From a virus (lineage: Duplodnaviria > Heunggongvirae > Uroviricota > Caudoviricetes): a stretch of DNA of 38,978 nt. Under the pieces are notes generated by a model. That model made no database searches and was not told the DNA's origin. It saw nothing but the letters and a program-made list of their open reading frames with translations. The position numbers and the translations under genes were made by a program. Positions 5,435-8,772 of this stretch are shown here, in pieces; position 1 is the first letter of the stretch; each line of letters begins with the position of its first letter. The stretch is from the IMG/VR virus record IMGVR_UViG_2778261386_000007. One strand, 5' to 3'.

Positions 5435-6109
5435 TTAGGCTTTGATTTTGTATCTTCTTGGTTTTCCTGAGAAAATCACTGTACCAATTATAGAGCAATT
5501 ACCGTTGATCTTAATGTAAGGCTCAGGCCAGTTTGGGTTTAACGCTTTGAGATAACGCTGTGTCCCATCTTCTATCAACCTTTTGAAGGTGGTTTCGCCT
5601 GTATCGTGCATCAATGCAATAACGTCGTCACCGTGGCAGGCAGGTACTTCAGGATCGACAAAAATCATGTCTCCCGGGCGGTACTCATCAATCATTGAAT
5701 CACCTATCACCCGCAAGATATAAGTCATTTCCCCACAGGGTACAGGGCAGGGATACGTTTCTGCTGTGCTCAAATCAACCTCAGAATATCCAACTTCTTT
5801 CCATGCTCCGGCCTGTACCCATGATATGACAGGGACTAATGTGATTTGTTTATTAGTGATTGAAACATCAGGTTTTTTTGTGATGTTCGTTGTCTGGTGT
5901 TCTTGATCGAGCCATCCGACAGGCAGGTCGAAACATTTTTCGATGTGTCGTGCCATGCTGTCACCGATATTTTTAGTAGCACCATCTCCCATAAACCTGC
6001 TGGTCTGGGTTGGCTCGCGATCAATCATAGTGGCAAAGGAAGAATTCCCGCCAACACCATCTCTCAGTTTTCTGGCGTTAGACCGCCGGATGTCATGGAT
6101 TGTTTTCAT
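5435..6109 (-). CDS. CI-type prophage repressor (HTH N-domain plus S24 LexA-like autopeptidase C-domain, 224 aa)
   Basis: C-terminal region ILRVIGDSMIDEYRPGDMIFVD ... LIEDGTQRYLKALNPNWPE contains the Ser (GDSM) and Lys (FKRL) of S24 peptidases; ATG at 6109 with no SD, consistent with a leaderless PRM-type transcript; divergent from cro. Confidence 0.88.
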   Translation of the reverse strand: MKTIHDIRRSNARKLRDGVGGNSSFATMIDREPTQTSRFMGDGATKNIGDSMARHIEKCFDLPVGWLDQEHQTTNITKKPDVSITNKQITLVPVISWVQAGAWKEVGYSEVDLSTAETYPCPVPCGEMTYILRVIGDSMIDEYRPGDMIFVDPEVPACHGDDVIALMHDTGETTFKRLIEDGTQRYLKALNPNWPEPYIKINGNCSIIGTVIFSGKPRRYKIKA

Positions 6110-6431: not shown

Positions 6432-6995
6432 ATGAGGCTAACCGTGGGTAAGCATCACTGGAAAATAGAAAAACAGCCTGAGTGGTACGTGAAAGCTGTC
6501 AGAAAAACTATCGCGGCGTTGCCGGGTGGTTACGCTGAAGCGGCTGACTGGCTCGATGTAACAGAAAACGCTTTATTCAACCGCCTTCGTGCAGATGGCG
6601 ATCAGATTTTCCCGCTGGGATGGGCAATGGTTTTACAGCGTGCTGGTGGCACTCACTTCATTGCTGATGCTGTGGCGCAGTCTGCAAATGGCGTCTTTGT
6701 GTCTCTTCCTGACGTCGAGGATGTGGACAACGCCGATATCAACCAACGCCTGCTGGAAGTCATTGAACAGATCGGCAGTTATTCAAAACAGATTCGTTCA
6801 GCAATTGAAGACGGTGTAGTGGAACCGCATGAGAAGACAGCAATTAACGATGAGCTGTACCTCTCAATTTCGAAGCTGCAGGAGCATGCAGCACTGGTCT
6901 ACAAAATCTTTTGCGTTTCAGAAAGTAGTGACGCCCGCGAGTGTGCAGCTCCGGGCGCCGTGGCGTGTCGTGACTGTGGAGAAACTAACGCATGA
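6432..6995 (+). CDS. Putative regulatory protein (CII/YdaT-like, 187 aa)
   Basis: First gene after cro; family assignment from positional analogy and weak recollection of YdaT-like proteins; start codon uncertain. Confidence 0.45.
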
Positions 6996-7330
6996 ACAGT
7001 TTAACAACACACTACCGTCGCTCGCAACTGATTGCGCTTCCTGTACCGGGTGGAAAAGCGAAGGTGGAGTATTGCTATGCAGTAAATGTACTAGGTGACA
7101 GGGAAATTGTAACCCACAGCTTTGCAGAGTGGGCTGTGGGTGATTTCAACCGGCAGAAGGAGACAGTCCTTTGCGACAAGTTAACCGCTGGTTCAAAGAT
7201 CACTACGGAGTGCCCGTCAGAGTCATTCGTTGGGAGCCGGAAACACAACGGGTTATCTACCTCCGTGAAGGCTATGAGCATGAGTGCTTCAGCCCGCTCG
7301 AACAGTTTCGTTGTAAATTCAGGGAAATAG
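6992..7330 (+). CDS. Hypothetical protein (112 aa); C-terminal half may be mis-framed
   Basis: ATG overlaps the upstream stop (ATGA coupling); the N-terminal half looks protein-like, the C-terminal part is low-complexity while an alternative frame 7171-7350 looks more protein-like. Confidence 0.35.
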
Positions 7331-7350
7331 AGGTCGGTCATGAGCACTAA
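7171..7350 (+). CDS. Alternative-frame small ORF (about 59 aa, TTG start) ending inside the start of the replication gene
   Basis: AGGAG 9 nt upstream of TTG at 7171; translation [59 protein letters not shown] looks like a folded small phage protein; stop TAA at 7348-7350. Confidence 0.3.
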
Positions 7351-8281
7351 ATTAACCGGCTATGTATGGGATGGTTGCGCTGCGTCAGGCATGAAATTAT
7401 CCAGCGTGGCAATTATGGCCCGCCTGGCTGATTTCAGTAATGACGAAGGTGTGTGCTGGCCATCAATTGAAACCATTGCCCGTCAGATTGGCGCGGGGAT
7501 GAGTACCGTCAGAACGGCTATCGCACGGCTGGAAGCAGAAGGCTGGTTAACGCGTAAGGCGCGTCGCCAGGGTAACCGCAATGCGTCGAATGTTTATCAG
7601 CTTAACGTTGCGAAGCTTCAGGCAGCGGCATTTTCTCAACTGTCAGATTCTGACCCGTCAAAATCTGACGCATCAAAATCTGACCCGTCAAAATTTGATG
7701 CGTCGAAATCTGGCAAAAAAGCGGGTTTTCACCCGTCAGAATCTGGCGGGGATCCGTCAGTAAAATCAAAACATGATCCGTCAGATAAAAAAACTTCTCG
7801 TCCGGACGCTTCGCAACCGGACACGCAGACGGCTGAACAGGAGTTTTTAACTCGCCATCCTGATGCGGTTGTATTCAGCCCTAAAAAGCGCCAGTGGGGA
7901 ACGCAGGATGATTTGACCTGCGCACAGTGGCTCTGGAAAAAAATCATCGCCCTGTACGAGCAGGCCGCCGAATGTGACGGCGAGGTGGTTCGTCCCAAAG
8001 AACCGAACTGGACAGCCTGGGCAAACGAAATTCGCCTGATGTGTGTGCAGGATGGTCGTACTCACAAACAAATCTGCGAGATGTACAGCCGCGTCAGCCG
8101 CGATCCGTTCTGGTGCCGTAACGTGCTCAGCCCGTCGAAGCTGCGGGAAAAATGGGATGAGCTTTCCCTGCGCTTATCGCCGTCCGTCAGCACGTACACA
8201 GAAAAACGCGAAGACCCGTACTTCAAAGCCAGTTACGACAACGTGGACTACAGCCAGATCCCGGCAGGATTCAGGGGGTGA
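7340..8281 (+). CDS. Replication initiation protein (N-terminal winged-helix Rep domain, repeat linker, DnaT-like C-terminal domain; 313 aa)
   Basis: N-terminus [51 protein letters not shown] is typical of phage/plasmid replication-initiator HTH domains; central SDSDPSKSDASKSDPSKFDASKSG repeats encoded by 15-bp DNA repeats; position right of cro/cII as for lambda O. Confidence 0.75.
   Translation: MSTKLTGYVWDGCAASGMKLSSVAIMARLADFSNDEGVCWPSIETIARQIGAGMSTVRTAIARLEAEGWLTRKARRQGNRNASNVYQLNVAKLQAAAFSQLSDSDPSKSDASKSDPSKFDASKSGKKAGFHPSESGGDPSVKSKHDPSDKKTSRPDASQPDTQTAEQEFLTRHPDAVVFSPKKRQWGTQDDLTCAQWLWKKIIALYEQAAECDGEVVRPKEPNWTAWANEIRLMCVQDGRTHKQICEMYSRVSRDPFWCRNVLSPSKLREKWDELSLRLSPSVSTYTEKREDPYFKASYDNVDYSQIPAGFRG
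7644..7775 (+). repeat. Iteron-like 15-bp tandem repeats inside the replication gene (candidate ori)
   Basis: TCTGACCCGTCAAAA / TCTGACGCATCAAAA / TCTGACCCGTCAAAA / TTTGATGCGTCGAAA at 7649-7708, followed by further CCGTCAG copies and an A-rich tract. Confidence 0.5.
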
Positions 8282-8772
8282 TCATGAGTCTTTTGAATGA
8301 AGTTCAGAAATACATTGAAGCCCATCCGGGGTGTACTTCCGGAGACATTGCGGATGCTTTTGCAGGTTACTCACGGCAGCGCGTTCTGCAGTCAGCAAGC
8401 AAGTTACGTCAGAGTGGGCGTGTGGCTCACCGTTGTGAAGGGGATACACGCAGACATTTCCCGCGCCTGACTGAGAGAGCGCAGGAGGCGGAACCGCAAC
8501 CAGTTCGTGAAACCAGACCTGTGCGCAATTTCTATGTCAGCACTAACGACCCGCGGGAGATTTTGTGCCTGACCCGCCAGGCTGAAGAACTGGAGTCCAG
8601 GGGCTTATACCGTCGTGCTGCAACGGTGTGGATGGCGGCATTCCGTGAAAGCCACTCCCAGCCAGAACGAAACAATTTTCTGGCGCGTCGTGAGCAGTGT
8701 TTACGGAAAAGCAGCAAGCGCGCTGTATCGAGTGATGAGTGGTATCTGTCAGGGAATTACGTGGGGGCGTAA
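8278..8772 (+). CDS. Putative transcriptional regulator with PerC-like C-terminal domain (164 aa)
   Basis: C-terminal segment QAEELESRGLYRRAATVWMAAFRESHSQPERNNFLARREQC resembles PerC/Pch-family regulators as I recall them; N-terminal part looks like a winged helix. Confidence 0.45.
   Translation: MIMSLLNEVQKYIEAHPGCTSGDIADAFAGYSRQRVLQSASKLRQSGRVAHRCEGDTRRHFPRLTERAQEAEPQPVRETRPVRNFYVSTNDPREILCLTRQAEELESRGLYRRAATVWMAAFRESHSQPERNNFLARREQCLRKSSKRAVSSDEWYLSGNYVGA

Follow-up and report, generated by a model that had tools for sequence, protein, structure and literature searches.

Introduction

What is encoded between positions 6992 and 7350 of the viral record IMGVR_UViG_2778261386_000007 (Caudoviricetes; 38,978 nucleotides, the whole of which is termed the window below), where two reading frames on one strand compete directly upstream of a replication gene? 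An earlier note, made from the sequence letters, had described an ATG-initiated open reading frame (ORF) with an odd C-terminal half and a second, well-formed-looking frame that ends in the first codons of the replication gene; its coordinates and sequence statements for both frames all hold on direct reading. It had left two explanations side by side, a frameshift (mutational or through sequencing error) in one gene or a genuinely overlapping small gene. The answer reached here, to which a probability of about 0.75 is given, is that two genuine genes share positions 7171–7330 in different frames and that the frame of the tail of the longer one, ymfM, is kept open; neither mutation, sequencing error nor programmed frameshifting is involved. 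The features on which the argument turns are the following.

6992–7330, + strand: ymfM ORF, 112 amino acids (aa), ATG start, TAG stop at 7328–7330
6992–7170, + strand: conserved N-terminal domain of ymfM (N-domain), ~58–60 codons, in which the ymfM frame is under selection
7171–7327, + strand: read-through tail of ymfM, codons 60–112 (~53 residues), overlapping the DUF4222 gene out of frame
7158–7162, + strand: AGGAG Shine–Dalgarno (SD) sequence for the DUF4222 gene, 8 nucleotides (nt) before TTG 7171 by direct reading
7171–7350, + strand: DUF4222 (RgdR-family) gene, 59 aa, TTG start, −1 frame relative to ymfM
7328–7342, + strand: proposed coupling junction, with ymfM TAG 7328–7330, GAGG SD sequence 7331–7334 and ATG 7340–7342 of the replication gene (GAGG-N5-ATG)

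Identity of the two genes

The ORF at 6992–7330 is the orthologue of ymfM (b1148) of Escherichia coli K-12, annotated as 'cell division inhibitor YmfM' (SfiC). Neither this identity with the published ymfM/sfiC gene nor the selection that keeps the long ORF open had been recognised in the earlier note. The window protein is identical to K-12 YmfM at 108 of 112 residues (four differ by hand count), and the gene neighbourhood (ymfK, ymfT, ymfL, ymfM, replication gene) is common to both. It matches phrog_1170 (E = 1.6e-69), its first 58 residues match phrog_20047, and neither a Pfam nor an NCBIfam match was found for the ORF. Homologues of 112–117 aa reach down to 45% identity. By direct reading, a GGAG lies ~10 nt 5′ of the ATG and the TGA of the preceding gene ymfL (6993–6995) overlaps this ATG as ATGA at 6992–6995. 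The N-domain holds 22 residues that are invariant across homologues down to 42% identity, and was modelled by AlphaFold2 as a β-β-β-α-α fold at predicted local distance difference test (pLDDT) scores of 56–71. The odd character of the C-terminal half is borne out: serine accounts for 23% of the residues in the tail but for 5% in the N-terminal part, and residues 67–112, modelled at a pLDDT of ~30, are predicted to be disordered.

Preceded by TGA 7141–7143, the second frame is open from 7144 onwards and closes at TAA 7348–7350, by which point it has entered the replication gene (ATG 7340) by 11 nt. The product of this well-formed-looking frame matches Pfam DUF4222 (PF13973; E = 2.5e-19; 69 bits, the cutoff being 27) over profile positions 1–52 of 53. 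The protein encoded by 7171–7350 also matches phrog_1343 (E = 1.5e-33), no NCBIfam model was found for it, and AlphaFold2 modelled it at a pLDDT of 84 as a five-stranded SH3/Tudor-like barrel with a short helix. The 139 DUF4222 homologues are mostly 50–86 aa in length with PF13973 as the only domain in each, and stand-alone DUF4222 proteins, carried by prophages or phage-inducible chromosomal islands, are typical across Enterobacteriaceae. The start of the gene is fixed at +179 relative to the ymfM ATG in the ymfM-type lineages, and in the others it occupies the homologous position; the start codon itself alternates between TTG, ATG and GTG among the lineages examined. Of 22 representatives of overlapped lineages, 19 have an SD-like motif 5–13 nt 5′ of the start. 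The stretch 7171–7350 is a bona fide DUF4222 family gene, and the suggestion of a genuinely overlapping small gene is upheld by its conservation, its fixed start position, the SD-like motifs and the coding-type codon-position pattern given below.

Conservation of the two frames as protein

For the close clade, 159 near-identical loci were reduced to 68 unique sequences, which were used for the analysis of single-nucleotide polymorphisms (SNPs). Diverged homologues were contributed by Phytobacter and by several contigs of metagenomic or viral origin. A scan of genome contigs with the N-domain alignment returned six loci only and the first viral scans returned near-identical loci only; the viral diversity was reached by putting a divergent sequence first in the search alignment.

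Among the 68 close relatives, the SNPs within 6992–7170 comprise 18 synonymous and eight non-synonymous changes in the ymfM frame. Within 7171–7327, 15 of the 24 SNPs are synonymous in the DUF4222 frame and 19 of the same 24 are non-synonymous in the ymfM frame. Between lineages (17 diverged representatives, 136 pairs) the first, second and third positions of the DUF4222 codons differ at 0.26, 0.26 and 0.56 of sites, respectively, and the mean amino-acid identity in the same 17 representatives is 0.59 for DUF4222 and 0.35 for the co-linear ymfM tail. DUF4222 is conserved as a protein in all of the diverged homologues. The SNP pattern, the codon-position pattern between lineages, the conservation of the start and the structure predictions together show that amino-acid selection acts on the ymfM frame up to ~7171 and on the DUF4222 frame from there on. 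What is conserved as protein is DUF4222 in its entirety and, of YmfM, the N-domain, the sequence of the tail being free to vary. The comparison of homologues that the earlier note had named as a check, with a conserved long frame and an unconserved alternative as the outcome speaking against a small gene, did not have that outcome: 6992–7330 is open at full length in homologues, but what is conserved as protein is the alternative frame.

Two alleles of the window were recorded in passing. Relative to the 68 unique close relatives, it carries the minority allele P34L in YmfM (C7092T) and, in DUF4222, the minority allele R48C (C7312T), which gives FRCKF in place of the FRRKF found in most of these relatives.

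Avoidance of stop codons in the ymfM frame

The stop-codon comparison drew on the window, on 80 viral loci ascertained by DUF4222 similarity alone and on four diverged loci (L005, L008, L010 and L014); the 70 unique DUF4222 coding sequences fell into 20 clusters at 85% nucleotide identity. Because the viral loci were found through DUF4222 similarity alone, the set is unbiased towards an open ymfM frame. All 18 of the 18 overlapped clusters contain no stop codon in the ymfM frame (the +1 frame of DUF4222) across the first 52 DUF4222 codons, and the +2 frame contains 1–6. When the DUF4222 codons were recoded synonymously with E. coli codon usage, the probability that the +1 frame would be open was 0.01–0.28 per cluster; for the window alone it was 0.077, which is only mildly unlikely, and it is the comparison across lineages that gives the open frame its significance. 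The joint probability is ~1e-20 with E. coli codon usage and ~1e-11 with that of the family itself (a conservative choice, this usage being biased already), both values assuming independent clusters and indicating orders of magnitude only. Independence is a fair approximation because third positions differ at 56% between clades.

Codon choice gives the same picture. A context was termed risky if a synonymous alternative (of Leu, Val or Ile) would create a stop in the +1 frame; in the overlapped lineages the safe codon is used in 283 of 283 such contexts, and the valine of the invariant V-I motif is encoded by GTT or GTC, never by GTG or GTA. Non-overlapped DUF4222 genes, in contrast, all carry stops in this frame (3–7 each). 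In the subclade L211/L213/L215–L224, where the upstream gene stops at the DUF4222 start, there are 3–5 stops, the risky contexts divide into 34 safe and 29 stop-making codons, and GTG occurs at the V-I motif. In L261, where an antirepressor gene lies between the N-domain ORF and DUF4222, there are five stops, and rgdR, which has no overlapping upstream ORF, has seven. Since the 18 clusters are open and use safe codons whereas the non-overlapped controls contain stops, the long ymfM ORF is held open by selection, which in the tail acts against stop codons only, despite the variable sequence there. The locus is accordingly a same-strand nested pair: the inner gene starts at a conserved site of its own, and both frames are selected in the shared stretch.

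These results bear directly on the view implied by the automatic annotation of such loci (see below), namely that DUF4222 is the sole real gene and the long ATG-initiated frame no more than a chance or shadow ORF. The NCBI Prokaryotic Genome Annotation Pipeline (PGAP) does annotate 7171–7350 alone, the ymfM tail lacks amino-acid conservation, and an open frame has a probability of 0.08 if this window is taken by itself. The first 58 codons of ymfM are, however, strongly conserved with synonymous-biased SNPs, the ymfM ATG overlaps the ymfL stop and has a GGAG ~10 nt 5′ of it, and stops are avoided in 18 lineages against the 3–7 found in non-overlapped controls, so that this view is considered highly improbable.

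For the study of how overlapping genes evolve, the locus is a clean natural example, one of the two frames being under no constraint other than to remain open. The same family occurs with and without the overlap and so supplies internal controls, which should be useful for methods that score overlapping genes.

Two further ORFs at these loci may be mentioned. In the viral contig L229 (984–1369) a frameshift brings the N-domain ORF to a stop at 1193, a short way into DUF4222, and the former tail frame is still free of stops; this looks like a recent disruption. In the window, an antisense ORF of 90 aa (7075–7347, − strand) runs in register with the DUF4222 codons. It was rejected as a shadow ORF: it is open in 58 of the 70 unique sequences, owing only to the rarity of TTA, CTA and TCA codons.

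Frameshifting and gene fusion

A different explanation of the two frames would be a single ancestral gene, N-domain plus DUF4222, that has been split by a frameshift or a sequencing error or whose parts are joined by programmed −1 frameshifting. The DUF4222 frame is indeed −1 relative to ymfM, and a few fusions of the two parts exist in the databases (P0031, P0050, P0056, P0062 and P0087). Each fusion has a different junction, however; P0031, P0050 and P0056 occur on one contig each, and P0062, although it comprises 14 member sequences, also comes from one contig. An ancestral fused gene was rejected on account of these heterogeneous junctions.

The split layout is, moreover, widespread and uniform. 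The region 6432–7700 was found in 2,793 of 5,426 complete E. coli genomes, with at least 80% of its length in 1,834, and the same two-frame arrangement is present in the e14 element of K-12, in phages SfII and SfIV, in these 1,834 genomes, in homologues reaching down to ~40% protein identity and in 18 diverged phage lineages. This disposes of the frameshift or sequencing error in one gene that the earlier note had considered. In L010 no more than a single codon of open −1 frame precedes the DUF4222 start, and DUF4222 has its own conserved start and exists family-wide as stand-alone proteins of 50–86 aa.

No slippery heptamer of the type X_XXY_YYZ was found in the overlap, and there is no homopolymer of four or more nucleotides in 7144–7330. 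A stimulatory RNA structure was not significant either (z = −0.5 and −0.2; for 7120–7215, z = −0.53, with 58 of 200 shuffled sequences folding at least as well). Programmed frameshifting was rejected on the grounds of the missing slippery site, the lack of significant structure and the independent DUF4222 start, and the explanation by one split or joined gene is, as a whole, regarded as extremely improbable. A hairpin that would pair the SD sequence with the TTG (~7155–7172) in the minimum-free-energy fold was likewise dismissed, as it is not significant and other lineages differ in sequence there.

Junction with the replication gene

Why should the tail frame be kept open if its product is free to vary? 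The geometry of the downstream end points to a candidate explanation. In most lineages the stop of the upstream ORF lies 4–10 nt before the next ATG or the ORF ends 7–10 nt after it, and this closeness of stop and start is kept with different downstream replication genes. Where DUF4222 has been deleted or displaced, the N-domain ORF is 73–78 aa long with a tail of ~12–18 residues and still ends at or near the next start: in L006 (Atlantibacter) it joins the next gene by an ATGA overlap, in L007 (Entomohabitans) its stop ends 10 nt past the next ATG, in L259 (Salmonella) its stop ends 3 nt before the next start, and in L261 it overlaps the next gene by 23 nt. Because these short ORFs still reach the next start, the ~50-residue tail is not required. 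The conserved feature is an ORF that runs to the next start codon.

In the mechanism proposed, translation through the tail would matter and not the tail product. Ribosomes arriving from ymfL and ymfM would be carried to a stop codon that abuts the SD sequence and ATG of the replication gene and would thereby couple its translation, while the DUF4222 protein would be made separately through internal initiation at its own SD sequence and TTG. Judged by geometry only, translational coupling from ymfL through ymfM to the replication gene has roughly even odds of being what explains the open tail. A more specific form is put forward tentatively and is thought somewhat doubtful: the ~160 nt tail would be a 'ribosome conduit' across a nested RgdR-family gene, with the corollary that the SfiC phenotype would stem wholly or partly from DUF4222 or from the 58-residue N-domain alone and not from the annotated 112-residue protein.

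The main rival to coupling is a compositionally constrained tail: the whole 112-residue YmfM would be functional and its Ser/Thr-rich, disordered tail needed as a linker, a degradation tag or a region of low-specificity interaction, and not for the delivery of ribosomes. It would account for a frame kept open by selection, expression of the full-length ORF causes filamentation (bioRxiv 10.1101/2020.11.19.390815), and selection on disordered regions can act on composition and length without acting on sequence. Set against it are the identity of the tail between lineages (only 0.35, and mostly forced by the DUF4222 frame), a synonymous diversity of DUF4222 that is not depressed (15 SNPs in 52 codons compared with 18 in 60 in the N-domain) and the 73–78 aa N-domain ORFs which, with DUF4222 deleted or displaced, still end at the next start. 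A tail needed for its own sake is therefore thought unlikely.

Several points weigh against the reading preferred here, that of two overlapping genes with a tail kept open for the passage of ribosomes. The coupling is drawn from geometry alone, which counts against it. L206–L210 depart from the usual geometry, their upstream ORF continuing for 37–82 nt within the next gene. Coupling might be provided by DUF4222 unaided, as its stop, too, overlaps the start of the replication gene; the read-through of ymfM would then be unaccounted for. A literature search for ymfM together with ribosome profiling found no paper. As to the open frame itself, the lineage clusters are not strictly independent, and in the close E. 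coli clade, where a stop would result from ten of the 93 changes that are possible without altering DUF4222 and 15 SNPs of this silent kind were observed, the absence of stop-creating SNPs is by itself not significant.

The loci without a complete DUF4222 gene and those with an unusual upstream domain are described here for their own sake. In the prophages at L006 (1501–1728) and L007 (1501–1737) most of DUF4222 has been lost and a C-terminal remnant is left, with an intact N-domain ORF of 75–78 aa extending to the replication start. In L177, L195–L205 and L214–L254 the domain encoded 5′ of DUF4222 is of several very divergent types, for example MNSLNRYRPAKQFRC; these domains have a loose common pattern and nearly all of them begin with MNSL or MSSL. 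Their sequences suggest either a fast-evolving family or mosaic domain replacement in which the read-through has been preserved.

An exhaustive search with the N-domain returned only 47 clusters. Weak matches in multiple stretches (E values from 7e-14 to 2e-4) were seen to the large repeat proteins P0214, P0223, P0231–P0234 and P0237, and DUF7507 repeats are present in two of the five scanned repeat proteins that match the N-domain. By their sequences, the matches to DUF7507-type repeat proteins look spurious and compositional, or they could reflect a distant kinship with a repeat unit.

Bearing on the SfiC division inhibitor

Expression of the ymfM ORF from pBAD24 leads to filamentation and loss of the Z-ring (Ansari et al., bioRxiv 10.1101/2020.11.19.390815), and deletion of ymfM shortens the SOS filaments formed in a sulA background, on which basis YmfM was reported to be SfiC (bioRxiv 10.1101/2020.11.19.390815). 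Clones from an earlier screen contained either ymfL(142–185) + ymfM + ymfN(1–92) or the entire ymfN–ymfK region. All of the functional ymfM constructs examined, that is the pBAD24-borne ymfM ORF, clone D1-8E and the deletion, include both genes: the cloned fragment, if it ends at the ymfM stop as is assumed, holds the SD sequence, the TTG and DUF4222 through Ile53 (Ile62 when counted from 7144) and so covers the Pfam domain completely. Since these constructs contain DUF4222 too, the published experiments cannot tell which protein blocks division, and the active inhibitor could be full-length YmfM, the N-domain or DUF4222. The molecular identity of the decades-old sfiC inhibitor is thus reopened by a second gene in the DNA that was cloned or deleted.

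The K-12 locus is closely alike: ymfM of the cryptic prophage e14 also encodes 112 aa, with four residues differing, and it has the same flanking genes and the same nested DUF4222 frame as the window. It differs in how it has been read, as the literature treats it as one 112 aa gene and the reading given here is that of two overlapping genes.

Annotation of the locus

The public records divide between the two frames. PGAP annotates only 7171–7350 (WP_023148278.1) and leaves 6996–7170 empty; K-12/EcoCyc-style records, such as that of MG1655, and the SfIV record annotate the 112 aa ymfM ORF and omit DUF4222, although the nested frame is present identically in K-12, complete with AAGGAG and TTG. 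The two annotations are mutually exclusive and each is half right. The PGAP omission means that a conserved N-domain (6996–7170) is unannotated in thousands of genomes, and the K-12 annotation of ymfM is incomplete in that a second, strongly conserved RgdR-family gene lies in the same DNA. In RefSeq loci such as L001 (2065–2239) the coding region of the conserved N-domain is likewise without annotation.

Comparison with known systems

The only studied DUF4222 member is RgdR (ECs1581) of enterohaemorrhagic E. coli, a prophage- or phage-inducible chromosomal island (PICI)-encoded pleiotropic regulator of LEE1/type III secretion and motility that binds DNA non-specifically (PMC3378721, PMC10877973, PMC6092414); its RGD motif (residues 20–22) is needed for activation of type III secretion (PMC3378721). 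RgdR of O157:H7 Sakai (Sp7/CP-933C) matches PF13973 with E = 2e-23, compared with 2.5e-19 for the window protein, and the two are 39% identical over 49 residues (BLASTP). Both are small mobile-element proteins encoded directly upstream of a replication gene and overlapping it, by 4 nt in the case of rgdR and the primase gene ECs1582 and by 11 nt in the case of DUF4222 and the O-like gene of the window. RgdR differs in being 99 aa long with a C-terminal extension, which the 59 aa window protein does not have, and rgdR is not overlapped by an upstream ORF. The RGD motif is absent from the window protein, where V-N-R corresponds to it, as placed by the alignment of the residues that follow (RgdR Y24-R-D-Q-Y-G, window F8-K-D-H-Y-G). 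The window protein is a member of the RgdR family but, with the motif and the extension both absent, probably not an equivalent of RgdR.

The gene order around the two is also similar. Window positions 7171–8772 and L258 23305–27045 (Sakai Sp7/CP-933C) share a gene order in which a DUF4222/RgdR-like gene is followed by a replication gene and then by a PerC/Pch-family regulator; the members are DUF4222, the O-like gene and yfdN in the window and rgdR, the primase gene and, a few genes further on, pchE in Sakai. Gram-negative PICIs are reported to encode both RgdR and PerC variants (PMC6092414).

Two kinds of known arrangement resemble parts of the locus. In the Rz/Rz1 pair of phage lambda, a small gene with its own start is nested out of frame on the same strand within another, and both products are functional and conserved in sequence. 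The inner gene of the window is likewise complete, in another frame on the same strand and with its own start; the difference lies in the outer gene, the overlapping part of which is not conserved in amino-acid sequence, the one constraint on it being that it remain open. At the translationally coupled junctions of phage and bacterial operons a stop and a start lie a few nucleotides apart, as seen here in the ATGA of ymfL and ymfM, in the ymfM stop abutting the SD sequence and ATG of the replication gene and in the DUF4222 stop just inside that gene. Here, however, the downstream start would be reached only by ~160 nt of read-through over a gene in a second frame, and the coupling is a proposal. 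Nested genes and coupled junctions are themselves known; their combination, with its bearing on ymfM/sfiC and on annotation, appears to be undescribed in the literature searched.

Genetic setting

The window is an e14/SfII/SfIV-like lambdoid prophage of E. coli. The region 6432–7700 is 100% identical to E. coli LD22-1 and 97–98% identical to the Shigella phages SfII and SfIV. The genes that surround the nested pair are as follows.

5435–6109, − strand: ymfK, cI/LexA-like repressor
between ymfK and ymfL in the gene order: ymfT, cro-like
6444–6995, + strand: ymfL, cII-like regulator (Pfam Phage_CP76, E = 1.4e-13); RefSeq names ymfL in the identical LD22-1 locus
7340–8281, + strand: O-like replication initiator (Pfam HTH_36, E = 4e-11; weaker matches to DnaD_N and RP-C)
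8278–8772: PerC-family gene (yfdN), downstream of the O-like gene

In phage records the gene at 7340–8281 is labelled replication protein or primosomal protein. Within it, positions 7628–7750 contain five to six tandem 15 nt iteron-like repeats with the consensus TCAAAATCTGACSCR; by analogy with lambda, these repeats are presumably the phage origin.

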